Both the position numbers and the translations under genes were made by a program. The notes under the pieces are model-generated. The model was not told the origin of the DNA, made no database searches, and saw only the letters and a list, made by a program, of their open reading frames with translations. From Thermoanaerobaculia bacterium (GTDB lineage Bacteria; Acidobacteriota; Thermoanaerobaculia; Gp7-AA8), in assembly GCA_035546335.1 (NCBI GenBank), contig DATKDP010000056.1, forward strand, positions 120,577 to 184,576: DNA of 64,000 nt, written 5' to 3'. Shown here piece after piece: positions 4,661-62,931 of the stretch. The stretch's first letter is position 1. Every line of letters starts with the position of its first letter.

Positions 4661-4701
4661 CGGGCCGGCGTCGCCGCTCACGACGCAGCGACACCGTCTC
4701 G

Positions 4702-35972: not shown

Positions 35973-36000
35973 CCGAAGGGGCGGAGGGAGTGCGGTGCAA

Positions 36001-36340
36001 CTCGTGGTGAGCGCGAAGCGCCACCACCGGTCACGGCACGACACGTCATGAAGTCGCGGCACCCCGAAGGGGTGAATGGAACACAGCCGGTGGTGAGCGC
36101 GAAGCGCCACCACCGGAACTGCGACGTTCCGCCGAAAGAACGCGGCACCCCGGAAGGGGTGCCCGGATCCCCTTACCAGAGGAATCGTGAATCGAACTCG
36201 AGTCCATTCGCTTCACCACCGGCTGTGTTCCGGGCACCCCTTCGGGGTGCGGGATGTGACGATGTGTTGTGCCCTGACCGGTGGTGGCGCTTCGCGCTCA
36301 CCACCGGCTGGAATCCCTGCACCCCTTCGGGGTGTCGTTG
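36001..36340. repeat. composite palindromic cluster of two alternating hairpin motifs (H1 CCGGTGGTGAGCGCGAAGCGCCACCACCGG; H2 GCACCCCGAAGGGGTGC)
   Basis: H1 at 36003-36030 and 36086-36115, reverse at 36278-36310. H2 at 36057-36075, 36143-36165, 36233-36255 and 36317-36338. Left-arm units are reverse complements of right-arm units around about 36190. Confidence 0.85.
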
Positions 36341-36381
36341 GCGCGAAATCTGAAGACTTTCGACTCCGAAGGAGCTGGGAC

Positions 36382-36624
36382 ATGGCCAACGAGATCGAAC
36401 AGATGTTGCGCGAGATGTTCGGCGAATCGTGGAACAAGCTGACGAAGTTTCAGTCGGAGCAGGTCGCCAAAATCACGTCCAGAGTCGAGGATCTCGCCCG
36501 AGCTGCTGTCCGGGATGACCTGGCGCGGCTGGCATCCGAGGTCGCGGAGCTCGAGCGCCGCGTGGCCATGCTCGAGGAGGAACGGGTCAAGACGGCAGCG
36601 GAAGGAACCCAGGCGAATTTCTAG
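36382..36624 (+). CDS. small coiled-coil hypothetical protein (80 aa)
   Basis: GGAG RBS. MANEIEQMLREMFGESWNKLTKFQSEQVAKITSRVEDLARAAV... predicted helical. Confidence 0.4.
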   Translation: MANEIEQMLREMFGESWNKLTKFQSEQVAKITSRVEDLARAAVRDDLARLASEVAELERRVAMLEEERVKTAAEGTQANF

Positions 36625-36680
36625 CCCGCATTTCTCACACGTCTTCCTCGGGAGAGCGGTGTTTCGCGACGATGTTGTGA

Positions 36681-38063: not shown

Positions 38064-38084
38064 GGGGGGAGAGTATAGGGGATG

Positions 38085-38280
38085 AGAGTAGAGGGCAGAT
38101 AGCAGAGGGCAGAGGGCAGATAGCAGAGGGCAGATGGCAGATGGCAGATGGCAGATGGCAGAGAGCAGATAGCAGAGAGAGGGCGTGGAAGGCGGTCGGG
38201 AGGGGGAACGCAGACGGCAGATGCGAAGCGCGCATCTTCCGTCTGCTATCTGCTATTTGCTATCTGCTCTATCCGCTCTC
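38085..38280. repeat. tandem octamer array (GGCAGATR/GCAGAGG) plus inverted partner array (CTGCTATCT) forming a large imperfect palindrome with a central 15-bp stem
   Basis: 38091-38180 (GGCAGATG x4 perfect). 38211-38245 hairpin CAGACGGCAGATGCG-aag-CGCATCTTCCGTCTG. 38246-38280 is the reverse-complement array. Confidence 0.9.
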
Positions 38281-38647
38281 AAAGAAGTCCCTGCTCTTCG
38301 AGCTCCTGACAATCGATGCAATGGCGCGTCCAGGGGACCGCTTTCAGCCGCTTTTCATTGATCACCTGGCCGCAGTTGATGCAGATGCCGAACGCGTTTT
38401 CGTCGATTCTCCTCAGCGCTTCGTCGACCAGCACGAGAATCTCGCGCTCGGCGTCAGAGAGTGAGAAGTTCAACTCCTTCGAGTAGGCGCTCGCCGCCTT
38501 GTCCGCCAGATCCTGGATGCCGTCATCCGGCTGAGCATTGCCTGCAGCCATGTCGCGAGCATAGGAATCGTTCAGCTCCGACTGCTTTCTGAGCAGGAGC
38601 TCGCGATACTGTTCGAACTGACTCGCTTTTGTCTTGGTTCTTGCCAT
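38279..38647 (-). CDS. DksA/TraR-family C4 zinc-finger protein
   Basis: CINCGQVINEKRLKAVPWTRHCIDCQ. Confidence 0.8.
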   Translation of the reverse strand: MARTKTKASQFEQYRELLLRKQSELNDSYARDMAAGNAQPDDGIQDLADKAASAYSKELNFSLSDAEREILVLVDEALRRIDENAFGICINCGQVINEKRLKAVPWTRHCIDCQELEEQGLL

Positions 38648-38662
38648 GCGCCCCGGTTCTCC

Positions 38663-39133
38663 TTACTTGTGGTAGCGAATGTTCCGCATCAGCGTACACG
38701 CCCGATAAATCTGCTCGATCAGGACCAGCCTCGCAATCTGATGCGGCAGCGTCATCGCCGAAAGGGAAAGGATCCTGTCGGCACGGCTTCGTATTGCATC
38801 ATCGAGGCCGACATCGCCGCCCATGACGAAGTGGATTCCATCCGGACTCTGCGACGAGATCCTTTCGAGCCACTTCGCGAATTTCAAAGAATCGATCGAC
38901 TCCCCCCGCTCGTCCACGACCACGGTAATGCCGCGCGCTGGGATCGCTGCAATCAGCCTTGCCGAATCGGCGCGTATGATAGCGGCATCCTTCTTTTTCT
39001 GTCTATCTTTTTCGGCTGCAACTTCAATGATCTCGATCGGAAAGAATCGCCCGATCCGCTCCCTGTACCGCTCGATCGCCGCGCCGAGCTGAGCGTCAGC
39101 ATTGGAACCGATCCAAATCAGGCGAAATTTCAT
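38663..39133 (-). CDS. rlmH: 23S rRNA (pseudouridine1915-N3)-methyltransferase
   Basis: SPOUT fold, 156 aa, MKFRLIWIG...GGDVGLD...LSLSAMTLPHQIARLVLIEQIYRA. Confidence 0.85.
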   Translation of the reverse strand: MKFRLIWIGSNADAQLGAAIERYRERIGRFFPIEIIEVAAEKDRQKKKDAAIIRADSARLIAAIPARGITVVVDERGESIDSLKFAKWLERISSQSPDGIHFVMGGDVGLDDAIRSRADRILSLSAMTLPHQIARLVLIEQIYRACTLMRNIRYHK

Positions 39134-39211
39134 CGTCGAGCCGATCCCGAAGCGCCTGAAATCAGGGTACCGATCGTCACGCTTCGACCCCCACGACCGC
39201 CGTTTTCGAGC

Positions 39212-40166
39212 TCAGCCGAGCCCGTAACGCTTTCGCTTCTCCAGCAGCGTCTTTCGGTTGATCCCCAGCAGCTCCGCTGCCCGTGTGTAGTTCCCACGCG
39301 TGCGGCGCATCACCTCCCGAATGTACCTCAGCTCCAGCTCCTCGAGGCTCCAGCGTTCTTCTGCCGCCGCGGAGACCAGCTCCGGTGCGCTGATCAGATC
39401 GAACGGCAGTGAGGCGAGCGAGATCGACGGTCCTGTCTCCAGCAGCACCGCGCGCTGAACGACGTTGCGGAGCTCGCGCAGGTTCCCGGGCCATGAATGG
39501 CTCCGCAGCAGATCGAGAGCATCCTCGGAAAAACCGCTGATCCTCCGCCCTGCCTCGCGGGCCGCCTCACGAAGAAAGAGGCGTGCGAGCTGCGGAATGT
39601 CTGCGCGGCGAGCGCGCAGCGGCGGAATCTCGACCGTGACGACGTTGAGCCGGTAAAAGAGATCCTTCCGCAGCTCACTGCCATCCGCGAGACGGGCAGG
39701 CGGAACGCTCGTCGACGCGATGACGCGGATGTCGACTTCGATCGGCCGGCTCCCGCCGATCCGGCTGATGCTCCGCTCCTGCAGGACGCGAAGTAGCTTC
39801 GCCTGGAGCGGGGAGGGAAGGGCCGTTACCTCATCGATGTAGAGTGTCCCTCCTCCCGCCAGCTCGATCCTCCCGATCTTCCGTCCATAGGCTCCGGTGA
39901 AGGCTCCCTTCTCGTGTCCGAAAAGCTCGCTCTCGAACAGATCGGGCGGGACGGCCGGACAATCGATCCGTACCAGCTGGCACTCGCTTCGCGGGCCGCA
40001 GCGGTGAATCACATCGGCCAGATGATCTTTCCCGCTGCCAGTTTCTCCCACCAGCAGAACGTTCACGTCGTGCGCGGCGATCTTCTCCACCGTCTCGACC
40101 AAAGAGCGCATCGCAGCGCTCCTCGTCGGCAGCAGCTTCCGCAAGACCGCCTGGCTACCTCTCATG
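39212..40166 (-). CDS. sigma-54 activator (AAA+ plus HTH) with no receiver or sensor domain (PspF-like)
   Basis: LLVGETGSGKDHLADVIH, GAFTGA, GNLRELRNVV, C-terminal HTH. Starts directly with the AAA+ domain. Confidence 0.8.
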
Positions 40167-45311: not shown

Positions 45312-45396
45312 CGACATCGTGAGGTGGATCTGCGGCCGGATCGCGGGAAGCCTCGCGGTCCGGCTTTTGTTTTTTCACCGACCGGAGGTGACTCAT

Positions 45397-47477
45397 TGGA
45401 TCTGCTGGAAGAGGCCGGGCCGCTGATCGACGAGCGGCGATTCGATCAGATCGAAGCCCTCTGGATGTCGAAGCTCGAAGCGGGCCTGTCACCTGATGTC
45501 GATATCGCTGCGTTCCTCGAGCTGGCAAGGCTGCTCCGCCGCTCCGACGAGCGGACGCGCGCCGATGCGCTGCTCGGTCTCCTCGCCGATTCCCTCCAGG
45601 AGGCGGACGCCTGGCCGCAGCGGCTGAAGCTGCTCAAGGAGCTCGCGCGCCTGGCGAAGAACCCTGCAAACCTCCGGAAGGAGATCGAAGAGGCGGTCGG
45701 CAAGGCCTGGGGCTCACGTCCCAGCTTCCGCCGTGTCGCGGCGCAGGTAGGTCTCGGCCAGCCGGCGGGGAATCCGCTGGAGAAGGCCGAGAAAATCGAG
45801 AGCTGGCTCCTGTTCGATCAAGGCGAGATCTTCTTCATGCCCGGAAGGGGCGCCGGAGTCGTCGTCGAGCTGAATCCGGACCTCGGAATCTGCCGGCTCG
45901 ATTTCGAGAAGGAAAAGCGGGTATCGATCCCGCTCGGAGCGGCTCCGAAGTTTCTCACTCCGCTGCCTCCGGGACATCTCCTTCGCGACAAGATCGAGAA
46001 TCCCGAAGCGCTGCAAAAGAGAGCGGTGAGCGATCCGGCGGGAACCTTCGCGCAACTGCTGCAGAGCTTCGGCAGGGCGATGACCGTCTCGGAAGTGAAA
46101 GACGCGGTGCTCGGCATCGTTCCCGAAACGCGCTGGTCGAGCTGGTGGACGGCTGCCCGAAAAAATCCGCAGATCGTCACCTTCGGCAGCGGCGCTAAAG
46201 CGACCTACGGCTGGAACGACTCCAGCGAGCAGGCCGAGCTGAGCATCCGGAGAGATTTCGCCCAGGCCTCGCCGCGGGCAATGATCGAGATCGCCAGGAA
46301 GCATGGCTCACGAAGTCCGCAGCTCACCCGGCATTTCGCCGCATCCCTCTCGAAGGAAGCCGAACGCCTGGCGCGCTCGGAGCCTTCGCTCGCCTGGGAG
46401 ATCATCGCTCTGATCGAGCGTCTTCCCGTCGAAGTCCCTCCTCCCTTCGATCCGGCCTCGCTCATCGCCGGCTCCGGAGCCGCGCGCATCGTGGCCGGAA
46501 TCTCCGATCGCGCGCTCCGGGAACGTGCCCTCGACGTCATTCAGAACAGCCAGGCCGAGTGGACCAAGATCTTCGGCGAGCTTTTCTTCATGGAGGAGGA
46601 TCCGCGCATTCTGTCGCAGATCGTCTCCCGGCTCGAAAGCGGAGGAGCGGCCGAGATCCGGGACCGGCTCATCGATGAGACTCTCCGTTACCCGCGACGC
46701 CATCCACGAGCGTTCTACTGGTATTGCAAAATGATCAGCGAAGCCGAGCCTCTGCCCGAGCGCGCGAGCTACGCGCTGCTCTGGCAGATGGTCGAGGCGA
46801 CCGGATCCGACGAATTCGGCGCACTGAAGCCGCGATTCCGCGAGCTCTTCGATCGCGGGGGGCTCGGCATCCGAATCATCATGAACAGCGACAATGAAGA
46901 GCAGGCTCGCAAGCTCGTCGAGACGATCGAGCGCTACGGAAGTATCGAAGAGTACCGGCGCGAGACGATGAAAGCGGCGGCTCACATGAAATACCCGCAG
47001 CTGCGCGAGCCGCAGGCCGAGCCGGTGTATGCCACGGCGGAAGCCTTCGCGGCGAAGCGTGAAGAGCTCGAGCACCTCCGCAAGGTCGAGATTCCGGCGA
47101 ACTCGAAGGCGCTGCAAACGGCTCGCGAGATGGGAGACCTGCGCGAGAACTTCGAGTACAAGGCGGCGCGCCAGCGGGCGGAGTATCTCTCGGCGCGCGT
47201 CGGCGAGCTCCAGTCCGAGCTCTCACGCGTTCGCCTGCTCGACCCGAACGAGATCGACACTTCGGTGATCAGAATCGGAACGCGCGCCTCACTCCGCAAC
47301 GGCGACATCCAGCGCGACGTCACGATCCTCGGGCCGTGGGAGTCGGATCCCGAGCATGGCGTCTACTCCAATCAGTCGGAAGTCGCCAGGGCGCTTCTCG
47401 GCAGGAGCGCAGGCGAGATCGTCAGTTTCATGGGAAACGACTATCAGATCGAGTCCATCTCGCGTTGGAAGTCGTGA
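45397..47477 (+). CDS. GreA/GreB-domain fusion protein (about 540-aa unknown N-terminal region plus C-terminal Gre coiled-coil/FKBP-like domain)
   Basis: C-terminus REMGDLRENFEYKAARQRAEYLSARVGELQSELSRVRLLDP...VTILGPWESDPEHGVYSNQSEVARALLGRSAGEIVSF matches the Gre factor signature. TTG start after a GGAGGTG RBS is proposed; the ATG at 45324 is the alternative. Confidence 0.6.
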
Positions 47478-47846: not shown

Positions 47847-49271
47847 TCAACCGAGCGGCAACTGCTCGAGCAGCCTTCTGAGGCGCCTCAGCGTCCTCTC
47901 GCGTCCCAGGGCGATCATGACGTCGAAGATCGGCGGAGAGTTGCCGACCCCCATCAGCGCCACCCGCAGCGGATGAATGTACTTCGCCGCCGAGACCCCC
48001 TCCCCCTCCGCGAGCTTACGCAGCGCCGCTTCTGCCGCCGCTTCGTTCCACTCGCCGAGCGCCGAAAACGCCTCGAGAAGAGCGTCCAGCCGTCTCGTCA
48101 CGTCCGCCCCTTTCAGATGCTTCTTCACCGCCTCATCGTCATAAGCGATCGTTTCGTCATCGACGAAATAAGGAGCGATGAGCTCCGCGAGGTCGCGCAG
48201 CGTCCGCCCCCGGGCTTGATTCAGTCGGATCACGCGCAACAGCCGCTCCCCATCATCGATCGCGACGGTGAGAAACGGCTCGAGATGCGGAACGATCTCC
48301 TCGGGCGGCTTGCGGCTCAGATACTGACCGTTCATCCAGACCAGCTTGTCGGCATCGAACACGGCCGGAGCCTTGTGCACATCACGGAGGTCGAACGCCT
48401 CGATCGCCTCCTCGCGCGTGAGAATTTCCCGATCGCCCCCGGGCGACCAGCCGAGAAGCAGCAGGAAATTGAAGAGAGCGTCGGGAAGGATGCCCATCTC
48501 ACGATACTCCTCCGCGGACGTCGCGCCCGTCCGTTTGCTCAACCGCTTCCGATCGCTGCCGAGGATCAGCGGCAGGTGTGCGAACTGCGGCGGCTCTGCG
48601 CCGAATGCGCGGAAGAGAAGAATATGCTTCGGGGTGTTCGACAGATGATCGTCACCGCGGGCAACGATCGTTATGCCCATGTCGATGTCGTCGACCACCA
48701 CGGAGAGGTGATACGTCGGGTGCCCGTCCGATCGCAGAACTACGAAATCGTCGATCGTCTCTCCCTCGAAGTGAACCGGGCCGCGGATCAGATCGTCGAA
48801 ATCGACCGGGCCGGGCGGGACGCGAAAGCGAACGACGAAACGCTCCTCCTCCCGCGACTCTCCCCTGTCGGCTGCACTCCGGCACTTGCCCGAGTAGCGA
48901 TAGGAACGGCCGTCCTTTTCCGCTTCCTCGCGCTCGCGCTCGAGCTCTTCGACCGTGCAATGACAGCGGTAGGCACCGCCGCGCTCGACCAGCTCGATCG
49001 CCCGCTGACGATATCGGTCGATGCGATCGCTCTGGTAGATGGGTCCCTCGTCCCACGCGACACCGAGCCACTCGAGCGAAGCGACGATCTGCTCGGCATG
49101 ATGCTGCCGCGAGCGCTCCGCGTCCGTGTCCTCGATCCGCAGAAGCATCGTGCCGCCGTAACGCCGTGCGTGCAGCAGATTGAAAATCGCCGTCCGCGCA
49201 CCTCCTACATGGAGGTACCCCGTCGGAGAAGGGGCGAATCGAAGCTTCATTCGGTCGTTGATCTCACGCAT
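47847..49271 (-). CDS. gltX: glutamyl-tRNA synthetase
   Basis: KLRFAPSPTGYLHVGGARTAIFN (HIGH), KLSKR (KMSKS). Start taken at MREINDRMKLRF; the longer ORF upstream is a translation of the repeat element. Confidence 0.9.
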   Translation of the reverse strand: MREINDRMKLRFAPSPTGYLHVGGARTAIFNLLHARRYGGTMLLRIEDTDAERSRQHHAEQIVASLEWLGVAWDEGPIYQSDRIDRYRQRAIELVERGGAYRCHCTVEELEREREEAEKDGRSYRYSGKCRSAADRGESREEERFVVRFRVPPGPVDFDDLIRGPVHFEGETIDDFVVLRSDGHPTYHLSVVVDDIDMGITIVARGDDHLSNTPKHILLFRAFGAEPPQFAHLPLILGSDRKRLSKRTGATSAEEYREMGILPDALFNFLLLLGWSPGGDREILTREEAIEAFDLRDVHKAPAVFDADKLVWMNGQYLSRKPPEEIVPHLEPFLTVAIDDGERLLRVIRLNQARGRTLRDLAELIAPYFVDDETIAYDDEAVKKHLKGADVTRRLDALLEAFSALGEWNEAAAEAALRKLAEGEGVSAAKYIHPLRVALMGVGNSPPIFDVMIALGRERTLRRLRRLLEQLPLG

Positions 49272-49299
49272 TCGAGAGCCGGAAAGTCTACCCCACCCG

Positions 49300-49745
49300 G
49301 CCCGGCGTCGAGTAGCGAGGCTCGGGGCTCGAGGCTCGAATGGCAACCGGTCTTTGGCCGCGTCGATGGTTCTCAGGAAACCCCGTCGAATTCTCGTAGG
49401 GGCGAAGCATTTGCGCGCAGGCCGCAGCGACAGGCTCGCGTTACCGGAGCGCAGCGCAATAGCTTCGCCCGGGTGCTTGCGAGAATGTGACATGGCGGTG
49501 GGTCGATTCGCGCCGCCCTGCAACCCGGGGCGGCGCGGGACGCCCGCTCTCCCGCAGAGGTTCGTTCGATCATCGCAAGCACCCGGACGAAGCTATTGCT
49601 CTCCGTTACGGCGTTGCAAGCCCGCCGCTCTGTCCATCGCGCAAATGCTTCGTCCCTACGAGGGCCGCCCGTCGATGTTCCGGAAGCCCCCCTCGAGCCT
49701 CGAGTCTCCAGCCTCCCCCCCGCGCATCTCCGCTACAATCGATGG
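49300..49745. repeat. composite repeat cluster: heptamer fragment, MITE-like copy (reverse), GC hairpin, MITE-like copy (forward), heptamer fragment
   Basis: 49318-49340 GGCTCGGGGCTCGAGGCTCGA. 49394-49480 element copy 2 (reverse). 49527-49553 GGGGCGGCGCGGGACGCCCGCTCTCCC. 49575-49662 element copy 3. 49690-49715 CCTCGAGCCTCGAG. Confidence 0.85.
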
Positions 49746-49746
49746 A

Positions 49747-50151
49747 GTGCAGAGAAGCTGCTCACGGCTGGCCGGGTTCACGCTGGTCGAGATCCTGGTG
49801 GCGCTCGTCATACTCGGCCTGATCGTGACGACGTCGCTGGCCATCTTCTACGATCGCCAGAAACGGCTGCGGGCCGCGGATGAGATGATCATCGCCTGGC
49901 AGATTCTCGCCAACGAGGCGGAGGTCTGGAGGCACCGCCCGTACGACTCTCTCGTGCCCGGCGCATCCTCCGCGTTTCTCTCCGATCCGGAGCTTCTCGC
50001 GCAGCTCCCGGGCGCCAAGGCGTCAGCGGCAATCGAGCACTCCGGGCCGGCATTGAGAAGCATTCACCTGACAATCCACTGGAGCGACAGCGCGAAGAAA
50101 GCCGAGGTCGCAGTACTGCGGAGCGACACGGGAGGAGGAAGCCTGTGGTGA
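49747..50151 (+). CDS. prepilin-type N-terminal cleavage/methylation domain protein (pseudopilin, GspG/H-like)
   Basis: GTG start gives leader MQRSCSRLAG followed by FTLVEILVALVILGLI (class III signal). Confidence 0.6.
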   Translation: MQRSCSRLAGFTLVEILVALVILGLIVTTSLAIFYDRQKRLRAADEMIIAWQILANEAEVWRHRPYDSLVPGASSAFLSDPELLAQLPGAKASAAIEHSGPALRSIHLTIHWSDSAKKAEVAVLRSDTGGGSLW

Positions 50152-50645
50152 GCAGGCGGCGGCCGAGCGGCTTTTCTCTGATGGAGATGGTCGTGGCGAT
50201 CGCGCTGCTCGGAATCTTTCTTCTCGTTCTCGTCGCTCTGGAAAGCGAGATGTTCCGGCTCGAGCGGTCGATCCGGATCAACATGATGTCGCATCCCGAT
50301 CCGACCGCTGTGCTGAGCCGGTTGCGGCGCGACGTCCTCGACTCTCACGGCTATCCGGAGGCGATCGATGGTCACGAGCAGAGCGAATCGACTCTGATCC
50401 TGCTCGGCCTGGCGGAAGATGGAGCGTGGGAGACGATCGCATGGGACTTCAGCGAAGAGGGGGTGGCGCGACGGATCACCTACAGAAGCGGGGAGAAGGT
50501 GGGAGAATGGACCGCCGGAAACGTCCCCGTTTTCACGATCGCGAGCTTCGACATGCCGGATGGCGGGGTCGCGGTGCGCGTTCAGGCCCGCCACGGAGGG
50601 AAGCTTGCAATCGACGGGATTTTCCAGCCGCGCATCCACGGCTGA
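50145..50645 (+). CDS. prepilin-type pseudopilin
   Basis: MVSRRRPSG-FSLMEMVVAIALLGIF. Confidence 0.6.
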   Translation: MVSRRRPSGFSLMEMVVAIALLGIFLLVLVALESEMFRLERSIRINMMSHPDPTAVLSRLRRDVLDSHGYPEAIDGHEQSESTLILLGLAEDGAWETIAWDFSEEGVARRITYRSGEKVGEWTAGNVPVFTIASFDMPDGGVAVRVQARHGGKLAIDGIFQPRIHG

Positions 50646-51024
50646 CCAGCGAGGTTTCGCACTGATCAGCGCGCTGGTTCTGGCGATGCTCTTCTTCGCC
50701 CTCATGACGCTCGTGATGGTCGAGTCGACGTCCGCCTTGCGATCCGCGACGCGATTCCGCGCGCGCGTCCGTGCCGAGATCCTCGCCGAGAACGCCGCCG
50801 AGCTGGCCGCCAGGAACATGGTCAGCGCACCCGGCTCCGACGCAACCCTTCAGAACGATGACGGCACGATGCACGGCAGCTATCGGCGCCTGGCGGAGAA
50901 TCGGTTCGAGATCACCGGGACCGGAGACGCGGCGGGCCCGATGAAAGTCTCCGCGAGAGTCCGCCTCTTCGGAACCGTGGAAGGGAGCACGATTCGACTC
51001 GATCGGACGATCCACGGGCGATGA
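50560..51024 (+). CDS. prepilin-type pseudopilin-like protein (start uncertain)
   Basis: ...QRG-FALISALVLAMLFFAL. The only in-frame ATG upstream of the G-F site is at 50560, giving an 85-nt overlap with the previous gene. The ATG at 50686 would remove the cleavage motif. Confidence 0.4.
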   Translation: MAGSRCAFRPATEGSLQSTGFSSRASTADQRGFALISALVLAMLFFALMTLVMVESTSALRSATRFRARVRAEILAENAAELAARNMVSAPGSDATLQNDDGTMHGSYRRLAENRFEITGTGDAAGPMKVSARVRLFGTVEGSTIRLDRTIHGR

Positions 51025-51863
51025 AGGCGGGAACGCGAGGGTTGATACCGGTCCTGCTGTCGGTGCTGGTCATCGCCGGCTGCATGGACCGCGAGCAGCG
51101 GGCGTTCTCGCTCGGGACGACGACGAGCATCGAGAACTCCGGTCTTCTGGCCCACCTCACCCGCGCATTTCACGAGCACCACGGAATCGCCGTCCGGCCG
51201 ATTGTGGTCGGCTCGGGAAAGGCGCTGCGTCTCGCCGAGCAGGGAACCATCGATCTGGTCCTCTCACACGACCGGCACGGTGAGCAACGTCTCCTCCAGA
51301 GCGGGCGCGTTGCGCTCTACCGGCAGTTCATGCGCAACGATTTCGTGATCGCCGGTCCTGCGGAGAACCCCGCCGGCCTCGAGCAGAGCGACACGCCTTC
51401 CGCGGCGCTGGCGAAGATCGCATCTTCCGGCAATCGATTCGCCTCGAGAGGAGATCAGTCGGGAACTCACATCCGGGAGCTCTCCCTCTGGCGCGAAGCC
51501 GGAATCGACCCCCGACAGCGTTCCTTCTATTACCCGCTGGGACAGTCGATGAGCTCTCTTCTTCGTTCGTCCAGTGAGCTGCGCGCCTACGTTCTGACCG
51601 ATCGCGCCACCTTCGAGCAGGTCCGCAGCGCGATTGCCCTGACGATTCTGATCGAGGACCACCCTTCGCTCGAGAACCTGTACGCCGTGACGCTCATGCA
51701 ACCGACAGCCCGCAATCGGGAGGAGTGGGAGCATGCGCGCCTATTCGCCGAATGGCTGCTTTCCGCCGAGGGGATGGCAGCGATCTCGAGTTTCACGATT
51801 CGAGGCCGGACCGTTTTCGTTCCGATCGAACCAGGCCGCGTCCCGCCGTCAAACTCCCCGTAG
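51021..51863 (+). CDS. tupA: tungstate/molybdate ABC-transporter substrate-binding lipoprotein (TupA/WtpA-like), orphan
   Basis: Lipobox (VIAGC). FSLGTTTSIENSGLL...PIVVGSGKALRLAEQGTIDLVLSHD...NDFVIAGP...FASRGDQSGTH matches TupA. No permease or ATPase genes adjacent. The stop TAG lies inside a repeat-element terminus. Confidence 0.7.
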   Translation: MKAGTRGLIPVLLSVLVIAGCMDREQRAFSLGTTTSIENSGLLAHLTRAFHEHHGIAVRPIVVGSGKALRLAEQGTIDLVLSHDRHGEQRLLQSGRVALYRQFMRNDFVIAGPAENPAGLEQSDTPSAALAKIASSGNRFASRGDQSGTHIRELSLWREAGIDPRQRSFYYPLGQSMSSLLRSSSELRAYVLTDRATFEQVRSAIALTILIEDHPSLENLYAVTLMQPTARNREEWEHARLFAEWLLSAEGMAAISSFTIRGRTVFVPIEPGRVPPSNSP

Positions 51864-52135
51864 GGACTTGTGCGAGGGACAGAGTGGGGAACTTGCGAAA
51901 CCGCAGCGCAGCGCAAATGCTTCGTCCGGGTGCTTGCAGGGAGAGCGGGCGTCCCGCGCCCGCCTCGGGTGGGCGGGTGGCGCGCATTCAGGCGGTTCAT
52001 GCGAGCACGTGCCGAAGCTGCCGTGCTCCTCGTAGGGACGAAGCATTTGCGCGAGGGACGGCGCAGGGGACTTGACAGAGCGCAGCGCAGCGCAATAGCT
52101 TCGTCCGGGTGCACGGGTAGCCCGCAAACGGTCCT
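51860..52135. repeat. composite repeat cluster: MITE-like copy 4 (reverse, small internal deletion), GC hairpin (reverse), MITE-like copy 5 (reverse)
   Basis: 51860-51937; 51938-51965 GGGAGAGCGGGCGTCCCGCGCCCGCCTC; 52029-52118. Confidence 0.85.
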
Positions 52136-52168
52136 GCGCAAGGCGTTCCCGAATCGTGGTGTGACTTC

Positions 52169-54223
52169 ATGACCGGAATGACGATATCGCCTATCGCTGC
52201 CCTCACCGGAAACGCCGTCGGGGCGTTCGTCATCGCGCTGCTGTTTCTCGCGTTCCTCTTCCGTTATCGGGGAGCCTACCTTCGACCGTGGGCCTTCTTC
52301 TGGATCGCAACGACACTTCATCACGCAGCGAGCGCCCTGACCCTGCACCTGCGCGCGTCGAGCCAGTCTGGAGCGGTCCTGGCGGGTTGCGCTGCGGGAG
52401 CATTCGGCTGGGCGGCGCTCGGATGGCTGCTGCTCGGCTGCCACGAGCTCGCCTTCCGGCGGCCGGCGCGACCCCTGCCGCGATCGATCCTGGTTCCCGC
52501 TCTCGCGGCAACGGGCGCGGTCGCAGGCGCACTGCTGCTGCTCATGACGAGCCGCAACGAGCCGTTTCTCTCGCTTTCGACCCAGGGTCCCATCGCCGCC
52601 GTGGTCGCCATCCTGGCCGCACGCTGGTTGTGGCGCGAGGGTGGACGGCGCAACCTTCTCGGATTCAACCTGATGGTGGTCGCCCTGGCGGTCTATGCAG
52701 CCGTTCAGATGCATGCCACCAGCGTCGTGGTGGAGCTGATGACCGGCGGGAGCTCGTGGAGACTCGGACTGCTGGTTCCCTTCCTCGACTTTTACCTTCA
52801 GGCCATGCTTGCGGTCGGGATGGCGTCGTCGATTCTGGAAGACGAGCGCGAGACCGCGCGACTGGCGACGATCGCGATCGAGCGGCTCGCCTATCATGAC
52901 GCCCTGACCGGACTGCCCAACCGTCCTCTCTTCATGGACCGGCTGATCATGGCTACGGCCCTGGCCGAGCGTACGAAACAACAGATCGCCGTCTTCTTTC
53001 TCGACCTCGACCGCTTCAAGGACATCAATGACTCTCTCGGGCACACCGCGGGAGACATGCTGCTCAAAGGGGTGGCCGAGCGGATTCGCGGCTGCGTGCG
53101 CCAGTCGGACACTCTGGCACGCTTCGGAGGCGACGAGTTCACGATTCTCGTTCAGAGGCTCGAGAAGGTGGAGTATGCAGCGAAGGTCGCGCAGAAGATT
53201 CTCGAAGTCATCCGGATCCCTTTTCTGATCGGCGAGCGCGAGCTGTTCGTGACCACGAGCATCGGCATCAGCATCTACCCTCATGACGGACTCGATGCCG
53301 AGACGCTGGTCAAGCATGCCGACATCGCGATGTATCGCGCGAAGGAGCGCGGCCGCGACGACTATGAGCTCTACACCGCGGCGATGAATCAGCACGCGCT
53401 CGAGAGAATCGCCCTGGAGGGAATGCTTCGAAAAGCGATCGGCAGCGACGAGCTCATCCTCCATTACCAGCCGATCATCGACCTCCACACGCATCGATTG
53501 GTGTCGGTCGAAGCGCTCATCCGGTGGAACCACCCCACGCTCGGGCTGATCGCGCCCGCGCATTTCATCTCCGTCGCCGAGCTCTCCGGCCTGATCATTC
53601 CGATCGGCAAATGGGTCCTCAGCGAAGCGTGCCGCCAGGCACGCGCCTGGAAGGGGAAGACGGGAAGGGACATCCGCGTTTCGATCAATCTCTCCGCCAG
53701 GCAGTTCCAGCAGACGGACCTGCTCACGATGGTGCGGACCACCCTCGAACGGACCGGACTCGAGCCGCATCTTCTGGAGATCGAGATCACCGAAAGCAGC
53801 GCCATGTCGAACGCCGATCTGGCGATCCGGACACTACTCGATCTCAAATCGCTCGGCGTGCGGATCGCCATGGATGATTTCGGCACCGGCTACTCCTCGC
53901 TCAGCTATCTCAAACGCTTCCCGATCGACTGTCTGAAGCTCGATCAGTCCTTCGTCCGTGACATCGTCACCGACGAAGGCGACGCGGCGATCATCGGCGC
54001 GGTCGTGGCCATGGCGCACATCCTGGGGATCGAAGTCGTCGCCGAGGGGGTGGAGACGGAGGAGCAGTTTCGACTGCTGGCAGCGAAGTCGTGCGATCGG
54101 ATTCAGGGATTTCTCTTCAGCCATCCCCTCCCGGCCGAACGGCTCGAGCAGCTCCTGCTCGCCGATCCCACCTGGTTTCTTCCCTCGGCTTCAGCCGAGC
54201 GCGTCCGATCGATCGAAACGTGA
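52169..54223 (+). CDS. membrane-anchored diguanylate cyclase/phosphodiesterase (multi-TM sensor plus GGDEF plus EAL)
   Basis: About 8 N-terminal TM helices. ARFGGDEF (intact GGDEF). EALIRW and downstream EAL-domain motifs (DDFGTGYSSLSYL, QGFLF). Confidence 0.85.
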   Translation: MTGMTISPIAALTGNAVGAFVIALLFLAFLFRYRGAYLRPWAFFWIATTLHHAASALTLHLRASSQSGAVLAGCAAGAFGWAALGWLLLGCHELAFRRPARPLPRSILVPALAATGAVAGALLLLMTSRNEPFLSLSTQGPIAAVVAILAARWLWREGGRRNLLGFNLMVVALAVYAAVQMHATSVVVELMTGGSSWRLGLLVPFLDFYLQAMLAVGMASSILEDERETARLATIAIERLAYHDALTGLPNRPLFMDRLIMATALAERTKQQIAVFFLDLDRFKDINDSLGHTAGDMLLKGVAERIRGCVRQSDTLARFGGDEFTILVQRLEKVEYAAKVAQKILEVIRIPFLIGERELFVTTSIGISIYPHDGLDAETLVKHADIAMYRAKERGRDDYELYTAAMNQHALERIALEGMLRKAIGSDELILHYQPIIDLHTHRLVSVEALIRWNHPTLGLIAPAHFISVAELSGLIIPIGKWVLSEACRQARAWKGKTGRDIRVSINLSARQFQQTDLLTMVRTTLERTGLEPHLLEIEITESSAMSNADLAIRTLLDLKSLGVRIAMDDFGTGYSSLSYLKRFPIDCLKLDQSFVRDIVTDEGDAAIIGAVVAMAHILGIEVVAEGVETEEQFRLLAAKSCDRIQGFLFSHPLPAERLEQLLLADPTWFLPSASAERVRSIET

Positions 54224-54257
54224 CGGGAGTCGAGCACGTTGCATCGTCTCGTGTTGT

Positions 54258-54290
54258 GACAGGTGCGGGCGCGAAACGCCCGCTCTCCCC
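54258..54290. terminator. GC hairpin (GCGGGCG-cgaaa-CGCCCGC) between convergent GGDEF-EAL and EF-G genes; probable bidirectional terminator or REP-like element
   Basis: Member of the conserved hairpin family. Lies in the 69-bp gap between stop codons at 54223 and 54293. No U-tract. Confidence 0.4.
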
Positions 54291-54292
54291 TA

Positions 54293-56380: not shown

Positions 56381-56619
56381 GCGTGTCTCCTCGAAGGGAT
56401 GTAACAATTCACGGTCCGAACGCGAATCATAATTTAAAATGGAGTCAGGTTCCCACGACATCCGGAAGGATCGGATGCACCGAGCGGTTTCCTGAGGACG
56501 AGCAGGGAGTATATCATTGCGCTTCGACATGCCGTGGCGGGCGAGCTCGACGGATGGCATGAGCAGAGGGATACGAGAATGCGACCAGCGATGTGGTTGA
56601 CGGATGGAGGATCTCGACG

Positions 56620-58644
56620 TTGAAGCTCGCCCGATACGAAGTAGTTCGCGAGCTCGGCAAAGGCGCGATGGGAATCGTCTATCTCGCCAAGGATCCGCTC
56701 ATCGGCCGGCTCGTCGCTCTCAAGACCATACGCCCTGCAACCGGCGATGACGACGAGGCGAAGGAATTCCAGGAGCGTTTCGTTCGCGAGGCGCAGGCAG
56801 CCGGGATTCTCAGTCACTCCGCCATCGTCACCGTTCACGACATCGGACAGGATCCCGAATCCGGCGTCTCTTTCATCGCCATGGAGTACATCGAGGGATC
56901 GAACCTGAAGGAGGTCCTCCAGCAGGGGACTCCGTTCGATCATTTCCAGGTCGCCGAGGTCGTCTCTCAGGTGGCTGACGCGATCGACTATGCCCATTCG
57001 AAGGGAATCATTCATCGCGACGTCAAACCGGCGAACATCATTCTCTGCGGCGAAGCGCGCGCGAAGATCACCGATTTCGGCATCGCCAAGATCGCCTCGG
57101 GGGTGAGCAATCTCACGACGACGGGGCAGTTCCTCGGAACGCCGAACTACATGGCGCCGGAACAGATCAAGGGAACGAAAATCGACGGACGAACCGACAT
57201 CTTCTCGCTGGGCATCGTTTTCTACGAAGCTCTGTCACGCCGCAAGCCGTTCGGCGGCGACTCCCTCACTACGATCTCCTACAAGATCGTTCATGAGCCT
57301 TTCCCTCCCCTTCGCGACATCGATCCGTCGATTCCCGAAGGCTTCGAAGAGATCATCGGCCGGTGCCTCGCGAAGGATCCCGCCGATCGCTATCAACGAG
57401 CGCGCGAGCTGGCAAACGACATCCGGGCCATCGTTCGAGGCGAAGCGCTCGAACGGCAGGTCGATTCTTCGGCATTCGAAGAAACGGTGATGAGCCACGA
57501 TGGCGAAAAGATCCCGACGATGGAGATTCCATTCCCCGAGGCGGACTCCGAAGCCACGGCCATCGGCAGTGAAGGAAGGCTGGAATCGAGTGCAACGCGG
57601 GCACGACGCGCCGCAGCCGGTGCGACTGCCGCAACAGCAGCACCGGTAGCTGCCGCTACACCTGCCGCGCGCACGGCTCGCCGCGCCCCCAGCGCCATCG
57701 CACGGCCCGCCGCCGCACAGCTCCGTCAATTGATCACCTCGAAGATCTCCGCTCCGGTCTTCTTCGGGATCATCGCGATCATTCTGATCCCGCTCACCAT
57801 CGGGGTGATCGCGATCAAGCAGGGGGAGGTTCCGGTCCCCGAGGTCGACGAGCAGCGCGCGGCTGTGGTGGCGAGACAGCGTCTGCTCCGGCAGCAGGGA
57901 ACGGCTCACTTGCGCCGAGGCAATGTGGAAGCGGCCTACGCCTCCTTCCAGGAGCTTCACAAGATCGCTCCGAAATCGCCGATGGTGATCAATGTTCTCG
58001 GCAAGCTCGACGAGATCCGCATCCAGGACATGACCCAGCAGCAACGACTCGGTCAGGCGAAGACGATCTTCGACGAAGGGCGTCTGCTCTACGACGAGCG
58101 CAACTACGAAGATGCCATTCCCCTCTTCGAGGAGGCGTTTCATCTCGATCCGAACCTCAACGAAGCGGTCAACTACCTGAAGATGAGCCGCGAACAGCTC
58201 GCAGTCCAGGCCAGAAGCACCGAGCGCGCAGAAACACGAGCGGAGCTCGCGCGGGTCACCGAGCAGGGCAGCCAGAGCTCTGCGCAACCGAACGGGCAGA
58301 CGACTTCACAGCCCGCCAGACAGCAGCCGGCTACACTCGTCACCTCGTTCAAGGGAACGGTCAACGACGGTTACATTCTGGTGAAGGTCAACGGCGAGAC
58401 CATCGTCTACGAGAACCTTTCCGAAGAGCCGAAGGGCTTCCTTCGCCGTCGCGTCCCGCGCGACATCGCCAAGAGGAGCGAGGTCCCCTCCGGGCGCGTC
58501 GAGATCGAAGTGTGGGTCGTCGTCCAGAGACTGGGAATCCAGGAACAGCGCAAGCTGCAGGAGACGCTCCAGCCGGGAAGCGTGCGAAGCCTGATCGTCA
58601 CGCTCGACCCGGGCAGCAAACGGCTCACGCTCACGCTCTCGTAG
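56620..58644 (+). CDS. Hanks-type serine/threonine protein kinase with one TM segment and extracytoplasmic TPR-like/C-terminal domain
   Basis: [66 protein letters not shown] start after GGAGGA is proposed; the long ORF begins at 56593. Confidence 0.8.
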
Positions 58645-58729
58645 CGAGCCCGCCGCTTGTCGCCCGCTGTCGTGCTCGAACCATCTCCGCGGGCTGACCG
58701 ACGCCGCTTTCGAGCATTCGAGGAGGACC

Positions 58730-59242
58730 ATGGACACCGGGGCCATCAACTTCAAGCAGTGGATCGAGGAGTACCGGCATCTTCTCCAACCGCCGGTTGG
58801 AAACAAGAAGGTCTTCGACAGCGACGAGTTGATCGTCATGGTCGTCGGCGGTCCGAACAGTCGCAAGGATTACCACATCGACGAAGGTCCCGAGTTCTTC
58901 TATCAGCTCGAAGGGGAGATGCTCCTCAAGACCATCCAGGATGGAAACGTCGTCGACATCCCGATTCGCAGCGGAGAGATCTTCCTGCTGCCGCCGCGCG
59001 TACCTCACTCGCCGCAACGCTTCCCGAATTCCGTCGGCCTGGTCATCGAGCGCAAGCGCCTCGAGAACGAGCTCGACGGCCTTCAGTGGTATTGCGACAA
59101 CTGTACGAACCTGCTCTATGAGGAGTTTTTTCCGCTGAAGAACATCGAGAAAGACTTTCCTCCGGTGTTCGACCGCTTTTTCGGCAACATCGAGCATCGC
59201 ACCTGCGACCGATGCGGAACGGTGATGCCGCCACCGAAGTGA
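58730..59242 (+). CDS. 3-hydroxyanthranilate 3,4-dioxygenase (cupin) with C-terminal rubredoxin-like Cys4 site
   Basis: [32 protein letters not shown]...[11 protein letters not shown]...WYCDNC...CDRCG. Confidence 0.85.
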
Positions 59243-59265
59243 GCCGCACTGGCTCGATTCTCAAC

Positions 59266-60294
59266 GTGCTCAAGATCGACATCCACACTCACATCCTGCC
59301 GGAGCGGTGGCCCGACCTGGCCGGCAGATACGGCTACGGCGGATTCGTGGCTCTCGAACATCATCGTCCCGGAAAGGCTCGGATGATGATCGACGACACC
59401 TGCTTCCGCGAGATCGGAAGCAACTGCTGGGACCCGGAGGTCCGCCTCGCGGAATGCGACCGTGAAGGAGTCGACGTCCAGGTTCTTTCGACCGTTCCCG
59501 TCATGTTCAGCTACTGGGCGAAGGCGCAGGATGCACTCGATCTCGCGCGGATGCTCAACGATCACATCGCCGGAGTCGTGCACGATCACCCGAAGCGCTT
59601 CGCCGGCCTCGCTACGCTGCCGATGCAGGATGCCGATCTCGCGGTCCGCGAGCTCGAGCGCGCCGTCCGCGAGCTCGGCCTCGCTGGCGTGCAGATCGGC
59701 ACGAACGTCAACGGAACGAATCTCGACGCGCCTGAGCTCTTCCCGGTTTTCGAGGCCGCATCCGATCTGGATGTGGCGATCTTCGTCCACCCCTGGGAAG
59801 TGGTCGGTCGCGAGCGCATGGCGAAGTACTGGCTTCCGTGGCTCGTCGGGATGCCGGCGGAGACCTCGCTGGCGATCTGCTCACTGATCTTCGGCGGAGT
59901 CCTCGAACGGCTTCCCCGGCTGCGCATCGCCTTCGCGCACGGTGGAGGCGCCTTTCCCACGACCATAGGGCGCATTGCACGCGGCTTCGAAGCGCGTCCC
60001 GATCTCTGCGCCGTCGACAACGAGGTCGACCCGCGCGAATATCTCACCAGAATCTACGTCGACTCTCTTTCACACGATCCGCGGATCCTCTGCTACATGG
60101 TCGATGCCATGGGCGCAGACCGAATCGCCCTCGGAACCGACTATCCGTTCCCCCTGGGAGAGCGTCATCCCGGCGAGATCGTCGATTCCTGCGGCTTCGA
60201 TGAACCGACCGTCGCACGTCTGTTTCATGGTACGGCCCTCGAGTGGCTCGGAATGGAGCGGGAGCAGTTCGTCCCCGACGGCGGTTCGAGATGA
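59266..60294 (+). CDS. 2-amino-3-carboxymuconate-6-semialdehyde decarboxylase (amidohydrolase-2 family)
   Basis: [11 protein letters not shown] ... HPW ... FAHGGGAFP ... [13 protein letters not shown] start at 59266 (the ATG at 59212 is the alternative). Confidence 0.8.
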
Positions 60295-61595
60295 CGATCC
60301 GGCCCGACTTCACCCGTGGGATCGACAGGGCGCTCGAGCTCGATCGAGCCGATCCACTCGCCTCGTTTCGAGATGAATTTCACATTCCCGGACGAAGCGA
60401 CGGCAAAGATGAGATCTACCTCGCTGGTAACTCCCTCGGGCTTCAACCGAAACGAACCGCGGCCCACATCGAACAGGAGCTCTCCGACTGGCGCCATCTC
60501 GCGGTCAAGGGACACCTCGAGGCGCGCAGCCCATGGCTTCCCTACCATGAATTCCTGGCCGAGCCGATGGCGGCAATCGTCGGAGGACTGCCGGTGGAAG
60601 TCGTCACGATGAACTCGCTGACGGCGAACCTCCACTTTCTGCTGGTCAGCTTCTACCGGCCGACTGCTTCGCGGCATCGCATCCTGATGGAGGATCGCGC
60701 ATTCCCCTCCGATCATTACGCCGCGACCTCGCAGATCCTTTTTCATGGCTACGATCCCGCCGCATCGCTTCTGCTGGTCAGACCTCGTGAGGGAGAGGAG
60801 GCCATCCGAAGAGACGATCTGCTCGAGCTGATCGAGCGCGAAGGGGAGTCGATCGCGCTGATCCTCCTTCCGGGCGTTCAGTACTACACCGGCCAGGCAT
60901 TCGACATGGAAGCGATCGCCGCAGCAGGGCGGGCGAAAGGATGCGTGATCGGCTTCGATCTTGCCCATGCCGCCGGGAACCTCCTTGTCCGGCTTCACGA
61001 CTGGAATGTCGACTTCGCGTGCTGGTGCACCTACAAGTATCTCAACTCCGGACCGGGCTCGACGGGCGGGGCGTTCGTGCACGAGCGCCACGCGAAGCGA
61101 TTCGACCTGCCGCGGTTCGGGGGGTGGTGGGGGCACGACAAGAGCACGCGATTCCTGATGGGACCTGAGTTCCGCCCGATGGCGGGAGCCGAGGGGTGGC
61201 AGGTGAGCAACCCGCCGATTCTTTCGCTTGCTGCGATTCGCGCGTCGCTGGAGGTGTTCACCGAGGCGGGTGGAATGGAGCCGCTGCGCGAGAAATCGGC
61301 CCGGCTGACCGGGTATCTCGAACAGCTCCTTCGCTCCATGCCCGGCGGTTCGGTGTCGATCCTGACGCCGTCGAATTCAGAGGAGCGTGGATGCCAGTTG
61401 TCGCTGACGGTCGGGCATCCTGAAAGATCGGGAAGGGAGGTGTTCGAGCGTCTGGAGGCGGGAGGGGTTGCCTGTGACTGGCGCGAGCCGAACGTGATTC
61501 GCGTCGCGCCGGCGCCGCTGTACAACAGCTTCACCGATGTCTATCGATTCGCCGACATTCTGGGAAGAGAGCTCGGCCTTCATGACACGCGATGA
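60291..61595 (+). CDS. kynU: kynureninase
   Basis: ATGA overlap with the upstream stop. [13 protein letters not shown]..., PLP-lysine region [13 protein letters not shown]. Confidence 0.85.
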
Positions 61596-62931
61596 TTCGC
61601 GAGACGTGACGCTCATCGGCGCCGGACTGGCCGGCTCCCTTCTCGCGATCTATCTCGCCAGGCGCGGTTTCGAGGTCGCCATCTTCGAGCGTCGCCCCGA
61701 CCTTCGCAGAGTGAACATCGCCGCCGGACGCTCGATCAATCTGGCGCTGGCGAATCGCGGCATCCATGCACTTCGCGAAGTGGGGCTGATGGATCGGATC
61801 GAGCCACTGCTCATTCCGATGGCCGGGCGAATGCTCCACGACGAAGCCGGAAATCTCCAGTTCCTTCCTTACGGCAGCAGGCCGGAAGAAGTGATCTATT
61901 CCGTTTCGCGGGGAGCACTCAACGGAATCATGATGGATGCCGCGGAGGCGGGAGGAGTCACGATTCATTTTCTTCACAATTGTCGTGAGGTCGATTTCGA
62001 GCAGCGCGAGGTGACGGCCATCATCGATGACGGCCGCGCCCGACGATTTCCCTATCGCACGCTGATCGGTACCGACGGGAGCGCCTCCGCTGTTCGCGAC
62101 GCGGTCATGCGTGCGACCGGAGGAGAATCGCGCGAGGAGCCTCTCGAGCACAGCTACAAGGAGCTGTCGATTCCACCCTCTCCGGATGGCGGATTTCGCA
62201 TCGAGCGGAACGCGCTTCACATCTGGCCGCGGGGGGAGTTCATGCTCATCGCCCTCCCGAACATCGACGGCAGCTTCACGGTGACGCTCTTTCTGCCGAA
62301 TGAAGGTCCCGAGAGCTTCGCCTCACTCACCACCGCAGAGGCCGTGCTCTCTTTCTTCGAGCGGCGGTTCGCCGATGCCGTTCCCCTTCTCCCCGATCTG
62401 ACGGAGGCATTCTTCGAAAATCCCACCGGACACCTCAGCACGATACGCTGCTGGCCGTGGCACTATCGCGATCAGGCGGTCCTTCTCGGCGACGCTGCGC
62501 ACGCGATCGTCCCCTTCCACGGTCAGGGAATGAACTGCGCATTCGAGGACTGCAGTGAGCTGAATGCCTGTCTCGATTCGTCCGATGGAACGTGGGAGCC
62601 CGTCTTCGCCGAGCTCGCACGGCGGCGCAAGCCGAACGCCGAAGCGATCGCCGACATGGCACTCGAAAATTACGTCGAGATGCGAAGCTCGGTGCGCGAT
62701 CCGAAGTTTCAACTTTGGAAGGAGGCCGCCTTCCGGCTCGAGGAGCGCCAGCCGGGACGGTTCATTCCGCGCTACTCGATGGTCATGTTTCATTCGATCC
62801 CCTATGCCGAGGCAAAACGACGCGGCGCGATCCAGGACGAGATTCTCGAGGAGCTGACTCGCGAGACGGCGACCGCGGCCGAGGTCGACTACGAGAAGGC
62901 CGATCGCCTGATCGCCTCCCGGCTCGGGTAG
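61582..62931 (+). CDS. kmo: kynurenine 3-monooxygenase (FAD)
   Basis: VTLIGAGLAGSLLAIYLARRGFEVAIFERR (FAD Rossmann), GDAAHAIVPFHGQGMNCAFED. Start overlaps the kynU 3' end by 14 nt. Confidence 0.85.
   Translation: MTRDDSRDVTLIGAGLAGSLLAIYLARRGFEVAIFERRPDLRRVNIAAGRSINLALANRGIHALREVGLMDRIEPLLIPMAGRMLHDEAGNLQFLPYGSRPEEVIYSVSRGALNGIMMDAAEAGGVTIHFLHNCREVDFEQREVTAIIDDGRARRFPYRTLIGTDGSASAVRDAVMRATGGESREEPLEHSYKELSIPPSPDGGFRIERNALHIWPRGEFMLIALPNIDGSFTVTLFLPNEGPESFASLTTAEAVLSFFERRFADAVPLLPDLTEAFFENPTGHLSTIRCWPWHYRDQAVLLGDAAHAIVPFHGQGMNCAFEDCSELNACLDSSDGTWEPVFAELARRRKPNAEAIADMALENYVEMRSSVRDPKFQLWKEAAFRLEERQPGRFIPRYSMVMFHSIPYAEAKRRGAIQDEILEELTRETATAAEVDYEKADRLIASRLG

Follow-up and report, generated by a model that had tools for sequence, protein, structure and literature searches.

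A predicted minor-pilin trio with an adjoining TupA-family lipoprotein gene, set among dispersed intergenic palindromes in a Thermoanaerobaculia genome

The locus analysed here lies in a 64-kb stretch (64,000 nucleotides, hereafter the window) of contig DATKDP010000056.1 from a Thermoanaerobaculia bacterium (Acidobacteriota; assembly GCA_035546335.1). Three consecutive genes for small prepilin-type proteins, designated pp1, pp2 and pp3, are followed by a gene for a binding lipoprotein of the TupA family. The four genes are tightly packed on the plus strand between a divergent gltX and a gene for a membrane GGDEF-EAL protein, and both outer spacers are filled with repeats (Table 1). A preliminary description of this DNA had reported three consecutive prepilin-type genes, a TupA-like binding lipoprotein and two composite repeat clusters, and had read the whole as a repeat-delimited cassette, possibly acquired or rearranged by recombination. 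Each of these components was found again, the repeat clusters at 49316-49715 and 51868-52112 with their parts in the order described. The cassette reading fared differently, as set out below.

Table 1. Coordinates of the genes and repeat features at the locus. Hyphens within motifs mark the predicted cleavage site.
Feature	Position	Strand	Remarks
gltX (glutamyl-tRNA synthetase)	47847-49250	-	Pfam tRNA-synt_1c 2.2e-99 and Anticodon_2; divergent neighbour, upstream of the pilin trio
Left spacer	49251-49746		~500 nt, nested composite palindrome
Left-spacer heptamers	49316-49339
Left-spacer 90-nt element	49393-49482	-
Left-spacer GC hairpin	49521-49553
Left-spacer 90-nt element	49573-49662	+
Left-spacer heptamers	49691-49715
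pp1, putative GspI/PilV/ComGE-class minor pilin	49747-50151	+	134 aa, GTG start, AG-FTLVEIL
pp2, putative GspJ/PilW-class minor pilin	50145-50645	+	166 aa, SG-FSLMEMV; overlaps the pp1 stop
pp3, GspK/PilX-position pilin-like protein	50605-51024	+	~139 aa, RG-FALISAL, no Glu at +5
TupA-family oxyanion-binding lipoprotein (predicted)	51021-51863	+	280 aa; ATG overlaps the pp3 TGA (ATGA)
Right spacer	51864-52168		305 nt, repeat-filled
Right-spacer shortened element copy	51868-51937	-
Right-spacer GC hairpin	51939-51971
Right-spacer element	52019-52112	-
Membrane GGDEF-EAL protein	52169-54223	+	684 aa; EAL 2.3e-76, GGDEF 2.8e-49; conserved downstream neighbour in the sub-clade

The start of pp3 is likely the TTG at 50605, overlapping the end of pp2, as judged from the sequence and from the gene calls of orthologues (136-151 aa). 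From the overlaps between genes we infer that the trio and the binding-protein gene are co-transcribed. A consensus scan of 49100-52400 returned no promoter-like site, and terminator-like sites occurred at chance level. The third-position GC content (GC3) of the four genes is 0.78-0.81 and their codon adaptation index (CAI) 0.65-0.68; GC, GC3 and codon usage match those of the neighbouring genes, and no break in GC skew was found at the four-gene module.

All three prepilin motifs were located, and Pfam N_methyl was matched above its cutoff of 21.2 bits by pp1 (28.3 bits) and pp2 (29.4 bits). These two proteins also carry the class III signal of type IV pilins, comprising a short basic leader, G-F(M), a glutamate at +5 and a hydrophobic alpha1-N segment. 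The G-F pair and the hydrophobic helix are kept in pp3 and Glu5 is missing, as in GspK and PilX. Models of I-type pilins were matched by the pp1 orthologues (n = 18) in the numbers 18 (ComGE), 17 (XpsI), 12 (GspI) and 12 (PilV), in every case over the N-terminal half only and below the curated cutoff; for pp1 itself the scores were 29.3 bits against 49 for ComGE and 20.7 against 44.35 for GspI. The one member whose fold was tested for class, pp2, was confirmed to have the J-type globular fold on the alpha1 helix. The curated J-type models TIGR01711 and PRK08808 were not matched by pp2 at their cutoffs (PRK08808 weakly, E 0.041; PRK10557, 0.0062), and a Foldseek search of pp2 against the PDB returned no significant match. 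All nine members of the pp2 alignment matched N_methyl, which was the only Pfam family found among them, and the family numbers 95 representatives at E<=1e-10 among 1.84 billion.

For pp3, a GspK model (NF037980) was matched over the N-terminal 60 residues (1.2e-5, 25 bits against a cutoff of 130), and GspK was matched by 6 of 17 pp3 orthologues. The AF2 model of pp3 (pLDDT 90.4) comprises a 62-residue helix and a five-stranded sheet, with no GspK insertion. Neither the large inserted alpha-domain nor the score of at least 130 bits that define GspK was found, and pp3 is PilX-like in this respect. Foldseek gave weak matches of pp3 to EpsI, none of them significant; no Pfam family was matched by pp3 or by the members of its family; and profile searches of the PDB with pp2 and pp3 returned pilin N-termini or noise only. 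Because pp1 and its orthologues match I-type models, pp2 has a J-type fold, and pp3 lacks Glu5 and matches the GspK N-terminus, the trio is read as a putative I-J-K set in canonical order with a small, PilX-like K member. The family so defined is compact and restricted to this lineage, its I-J-K-type minor pilins are of unusually small size, with no Pfam family for the K-type member, and it could serve as a minimal model of a filament-priming complex.

Essentially all credible open reading frames (ORFs) of the window were searched with Pfam. No ABC permease or ATPase, secretin, pilus ATPase, platform protein or prepilin peptidase was found, in agreement with the preliminary description as regards the transporter genes, the secretin and the pilus ATPase. 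The window likewise holds no further GFxxxE-type prepilin, no major pilin and no complete type II secretion or type IV pilus locus. According to a published review, core minor pilins are grouped in a dedicated operon and the genes of type IVa pili are distributed among several operons; priming and capping of the filament fall to the I-J-K complex, and PilX is without the GspK insertion (PMC7248040). The lack of nearby machinery is expected because core minor-pilin operons usually sit apart from it (PMC7248040), and a pilin trio standing by itself is the ordinary arrangement for proteins of this kind.

The binding protein matched PBP_like_2 (5.6e-22) and a TupA model (4e-38), has the lipobox VIAGC, and aligned over its full length to solved TupA-type structures (3lr1, 3e-44; 3muq; 5my5, 3e-39). 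It scored 131.3 bits on the TupA equivalog model NCBIfam NF041772, below the cutoff of 400. All pocket residues listed for Desulfovibrio TupA (PMC5517513) are present in the alignment to 3lr1 and 3muq: TTTS, His59 (SHD), Arg118 and Thr124 (SRGDQSGTH) and Asp170 (LTDRAT). They are conserved in six orthologues, as is the cysteine after the hydrophobic leader, and on account of that cysteine the protein is taken to be a lipoprotein. Tungstate or molybdate is the predicted ligand. The binding-protein family has roughly 1,390 members. The window contains neither tupB permease nor tupC ATPase, and thus no TupABC transporter cluster; no ABC genes or tupBC were found beside the homologues on the fetched stretches of five related loci (L019, L022, L051, L053 and L054). 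In L019 (5414-6792) and L022 (6001-7546), which are unrelated contigs, distant homologues of the binding protein (47-50% identity) adjoin a gene of the fatty-acid hydroxylase family. These contexts suggest a wider lineage of transporter-less TupA-like proteins.

Related loci, numbered here with the prefix L, came from look-ups of homologues and from two scans, one of genomes and one of metagenomes; the metagenome scan used the pp2 alignment minus its N-terminus. The genome scan yielded at least three full orthologues, the generic pilin N-terminus dominating the matches listed. Flanks of up to 10 kb were compared by tblastn with the genes neighbouring the trio in the window. The trio was present in about 40 loci, and gltX was its divergent neighbour in 22 of the 27 Thermoanaerobaculia-type loci with the upstream side visible. 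The gltX-trio spacers of these relatives are 40-225 nt long and free of repeats; here the spacer is ~500 nt.

The binding-protein gene directly follows pp3 in five independent loci (the window, L021, L051/L052, L053 and L054) at ~50% identity, and the two genes share an ATGA overlap in the window, L051 and L053. Among relatives with this junction, pp1 lies on the same contig only in L021 and L053; the contig of L054 opens with the C-terminus of pp3 (...IDRTTHSQ, then the stop codon). L051 reproduces the order of the window, with an orthologue of the GGDEF-EAL gene (56% identity) after the binding-protein gene. It has no repeats, and its 210-nt spacer equivalent to the right spacer gave no repeat match. 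In L003 the order is gltX-trio-GGDEF/EAL, the GGDEF-EAL orthologue (37% identity) standing directly after pp3 with no binding-protein gene. That downstream gene was considered as a candidate binding protein and ruled out, having no BLASTP similarity to it and being recognised by tblastn as the GGDEF-EAL orthologue. No binding-protein gene was found downstream of pp3 in L003 or in 20 loci of the other clade with at least 900 nt of downstream sequence. The outer neighbours vary: gltX is replaced by a gene for a 740-aa protein in L021, and Peptidase_M15 stands in place of GGDEF-EAL in L053 and L054.

Neighbour-joining trees were built for each pilin; in them the window clusters with L003, L005, L021, L051 and L053, and the loci with a binding-protein gene fall inside one clade of the pilin tree. 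The trio-linked binding proteins make up a single clade, to which unlinked homologues (for example those of L019 and L022) do not belong. The linkage of pilins to binding protein is real and conserved, and it is monophyletic on the pilin tree as well as on the binding-protein tree. The most economical history starts from an old arrangement of gltX divergent from the trio, followed by a single insertion of a binding-protein gene at the root of a sub-clade and a single loss, in L003.

Some further features of the related loci were recorded. The 740-aa gene of L021 (170-2392) lies directly upstream of the trio on the same strand and has no Pfam match; no gltX was detected in the 2.5 kb that precedes pp1 on this contig. 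A large non-pilin protein in this position in a minor-pilin operon recalls the PilY1-type tip proteins. L032 is the one locus in which gltX stands 3.7 kb from the trio and not next to it; an insertion between the two divergent units is implied for this lineage. In the clade-A loci L036 (3447-4073) and L039 (3449-4222) a Ser/Thr kinase gene lies ~1.1 kb downstream of the trio and is homologous (37-40% identity) to the kinase gene at 56563-58644 of the window. TamB/Omp85 and MOFRL genes are found near the trio in L002 and 14-20 kb away in the window. The placements of the kinase, TamB/Omp85 and MOFRL genes point to a broader regional synteny.

The repeats of the two spacers are not confined to this locus. 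Ten matches to a 17-nt arm of the element were found in the window, against 0.41 in shuffled sequence, and 0 of 100 shuffles reached ten. Further copies of the 90-nt element lie at 1490-1575 and 3352-3448. The GC hairpin, GAGCGGGCGCGGGACGCCCGCTC, recurs as two tandem copies at 4558-4662, 60 nt apart and between two minus-strand genes, and as a third extra copy at 54247-54291, between the convergent GGDEF-EAL and EF-G-like genes. These copies are not followed by a T-run, and the hairpin is therefore not a canonical intrinsic terminator. The spacer beside proS (17650-17847) contains 14.6 copies of CTCGGGG/CTCGAGG, a 21-nt spacer and 5.4 copies of TCGAGCCTCTAGTC; the latter array is largely the reverse complement of two CTCGGGG/CTCGAGG units with substitutions, so that the two arrays form an inverted pair. 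The same CTCGGGG/CTCGAGG heptamer provides the outermost arms of the left-spacer palindrome, and the left spacer as a whole folds into one nested palindrome of ~420 nt (-279 kcal/mol, z = -10.4). In total the window holds six element copies and five hairpin copies, and the repeats, with the heptamer arrays, occupy at least six spacers. The consensus stem has 22 pairs, mostly invariant.

Each element and both whole spacers were compared by blastn with the 53 fetched loci, and only L001 was matched. L001, a Logan contig 2.3 kb long, derives from the same organism, and each of its ends breaks within the repeats; assemblies break at multi-copy sequence. No Rfam family was matched by the repeats at gathering thresholds in a search of the whole window. 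The repeats are multi-copy imperfect palindromes, restricted to spacers and arranged in mosaic clusters, and those in the flanking clusters are of REP/BIME (repetitive extragenic palindrome/bacterial interspersed mosaic element) type: mosaic intergenic palindromes, specific to this genome and dispersed in it. Two other repeat families were noted in the window. A second inverted pair of heptamer arrays lies at 38090-38279 (unit AGATGGC/AGAGGGC, ~12x, with its inverted partner at 38233-38279), within ~3 kb (35972-39212) in which the scanned ORFs have no Pfam match. A third family at 36004-36337 comprises three to four copies in both orientations, with arms of 38-68 nt that contain GCACCCCGAAGGGGTG and CCGGTGGTG and are 79-92% complementary.

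A reading of the 2.1-kb block as a repeat-bounded cassette, acquired or moved by recombination between its flanking repeats, starts from the presence of the 90-nt element and the GC hairpin in each flank, oriented so that deletion or inversion would be possible. Against it, the same elements occur in at least four other spacers of the window and, the same-organism contig L001 apart, in none of the 52 related loci fetched. Relatives without repeats share the order and orientation of gltX, trio, binding-protein gene and GGDEF/EAL gene, and the pp3-binding protein junction is contiguous without repeats in L021, L051/L052, L053 and L054. The preliminary description had itself given contiguity of these genes without repeats in relatives as grounds for refutation. 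The composition of the module is native, and Pfam identified no recombinase domain near it. Atypical composition, variable presence, a recombinase and specific boundaries, the marks of a mobile cassette or island, were all lacking. We consider the cassette reading refuted because the gene order is kept without repeats, the repeats are dispersed and the composition is native; little credence is left to it. Horizontal transfer of the module is without compositional support, and where a genome is rich in repeats, clusters of them on both sides of a block of genes do not argue for a cassette.

We favour, as the probable explanation, a native, vertically inherited Thermoanaerobaculia operon, consisting of a minor-pilin trio and an appended gene for a TupA-family lipoprotein, with dispersed repeats on either side. 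On this explanation pp1, pp2 and pp3 would correspond to GspI/J/K, PilV/W/X and ComGE/F/G, the core minor (pseudo)pilins of I, J and K type. As in known systems they would be processed by a prepilin peptidase and, by analogy, assemble in the inner membrane into a staggered tip complex by which a type IV filament is primed and capped; genes elsewhere would supply the major pilin, prepilin peptidase, ATPase, platform and secretin. The gene for a tungstate/molybdate-binding lipoprotein would have been appended once, at the 3' end of the operon in one sub-clade, coupled translationally through the ATGA overlap and inherited with the operon since. Repeats would have colonised both spacers, the gltX-pp1 spacer growing from ~40-225 nt to ~500 nt.

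The role of the binding protein is the least certain step. Tentatively, its most likely role would be ordinary oxyanion capture to feed an unlinked transporter, and dependence on the promoter of the pilin genes would keep its gene beside them. A role coupled to the filament is the main competitor and is, in our judgement, unlikely. The protein would be either a cargo that a secretion-type pseudopilus expels or displays, or a non-pilin partner encoded after the K/X-type pilin in a PilY1-like position (as in fimU-pilVWXY1), and tungstate or molybdate would be captured outside the periplasm. Such coupling would fit the recurrence of the pp3-binding protein junction in five independent loci at ~50% identity, three with ATGA, its persistence while the outer neighbours changed, the congruence of the pilin and binding-protein trees, and the orphan state of this binding-protein lineage with respect to ABC genes wherever examined. 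The binding protein is also a lipoprotein, like some cargos of type II secretion; PulA is a lipoprotein cargo of that pathway. There is a precedent in Hxc, whose gene cluster encodes a PstS-like binding protein that the system exports (PMC2225411, PMC2242829). On the other side, no secretion machinery is linked to the trio, and pp3 lacks the GspK insertion, which makes the trio resemble a type IVa set more than a secretion set. L003 retains the trio without the binding protein, and a promoterless gene would stay linked for trivial reasons.

A third role, as a co-sensor, is very improbable. The binding protein would report oxyanion availability to the downstream GGDEF-EAL protein in the manner of NspS-MbaA of Vibrio, the filament perhaps being tuned through c-di-GMP. 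NspS-MbaA is an established pair of binding protein and GGDEF-EAL protein (PMC5646818, PMC8079147); the two genes are consecutive in the window and in L051 (56% identity), and a GGDEF-EAL gene directly follows the trio in L003. That last adjacency, however, exists without the binding protein, and in L053 and L054 the binding-protein gene is followed by Peptidase_M15. A hydropathy scan of the GGDEF-EAL protein gave ~6-7 hydrophobic segments with loops of at most 30 aa in the N-terminus, and no Pfam domain was found N-terminal of GGDEF in the 684 residues. The protein therefore lacks a periplasmic docking domain of the kind that marks an NspS-MbaA-type pair. Rather improbable, too, is the broader proposal that the I-J-K tip complex, the TupA-like lipoprotein and the multi-pass GGDEF-EAL protein act as one unit in one sub-clade. 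If it were true, the filament would display or export a tungstate/molybdate binder or use a tip-associated sensor, and trace-metal capture would be tied to filament dynamics and c-di-GMP by a route without a described counterpart.

Several observations weigh against the native-operon explanation or parts of it. Membership of the GspI, GspJ and GspK sequence families was not reached at curated cutoffs, and pp3 has no significant fold match. There are three minor pilins and not the usual four, a GspH/FimU type being absent. The remaining filament machinery is absent from the 64 kb and would have to be encoded elsewhere in the genome. Ordinary capture with a retained promoter dependence is countered by the absence of tupBC here and next to every homologue examined, and by the survival of the pp3-binding protein junction while both outer neighbours changed.

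Two other parts of the window are recorded for completeness. A kynurenine-pathway cluster at 58595-62931 encodes 3-hydroxyanthranilate dioxygenase, an Amidohydro_2 enzyme, kynureninase and a FAD monooxygenase. A 717-aa protein encoded at 45324-47477 has the GreA/GreB N- and C-terminal domains in its last 150 residues and a long N-terminal part without a Pfam match.

Among known systems, REP and BIME sequences of enterobacteria and pseudomonads are short imperfect palindromes of spacers that occur in mosaic clusters and in both orientations. The repeats described here resemble them in being confined to spacers, present in many copies in one genome and absent from the orthologous spacers of relatives. 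They differ in that the unit is ~87-90 nt, longer than classical REPs, in their combination with heptamer arrays in a nested palindrome of ~420 nt, and in matching no Rfam family.

The closest counterparts of the trio are the core minor-pilin operons: gspH-I-J-K, fimU-pilVWXY1E of P. aeruginosa, ppdA-ppdB-ygdB-ppdC of E. coli and comGD-G of Firmicutes. Shared features are consecutive, overlapping small prepilin genes in the order I-J-K, a last pilin without Glu5, the J-type fold (in pp2) and, for the type IVa operons, a location apart from the ATPase, platform and secretin genes (PMC7248040). In contrast to these operons, the locus described here has three genes only, with no H/FimU-type member; its proteins are unusually small, the K-type having ~125 mature residues against the 307 positions of the GspK model; and none reaches the curated cutoff of a named family. 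It is also fixed next to gltX in the lineage and carries, in one sub-clade, a TupA-like lipoprotein gene at its 3' end.

The binding protein shares with TupA of TupABC (3lr1, 5my5) the fold family, as assigned by sequence, and all described ligand residues. It differs in its score (131 bits against the equivalog cutoff of 400), in being a predicted lipoprotein, in having no tupB or tupC found nearby, and in its apparent co-operonic position with pilins. A literature search turned up neither a paper that links pseudopilins to binding proteins for tungstate or other substrates nor any work on pili of Thermoanaerobaculia. The preliminary description had called the pairing of pseudopilins with a solute-binding protein undescribed. 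As far as we found, this holds for a TupA-type protein, and the linkage is mildly unusual; for binding proteins at large it does not hold, given the Hxc precedent. DING/Psp, a PstS-like oxyanion binder, is encoded inside the Hxc type II secretion cluster of Pseudomonas, is exported by Hxc and has been proposed to scavenge its anion outside the cell (PMC2225411, PMC2242829). In both cases an oxyanion binder of binding-protein fold is genetically tied to genes of a pseudopilus-based machine. In the Hxc case the whole secretion cluster flanks the gene, export was shown experimentally and the ligand is phosphate, whereas here only three minor pilins are linked and the predicted ligand is tungstate or molybdate. 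The linkage offers a lead to the way in which these anaerobes acquire tungsten or molybdenum, and to the question whether binding proteins other than DING of the Hxc system can be cargo of type IV filaments.

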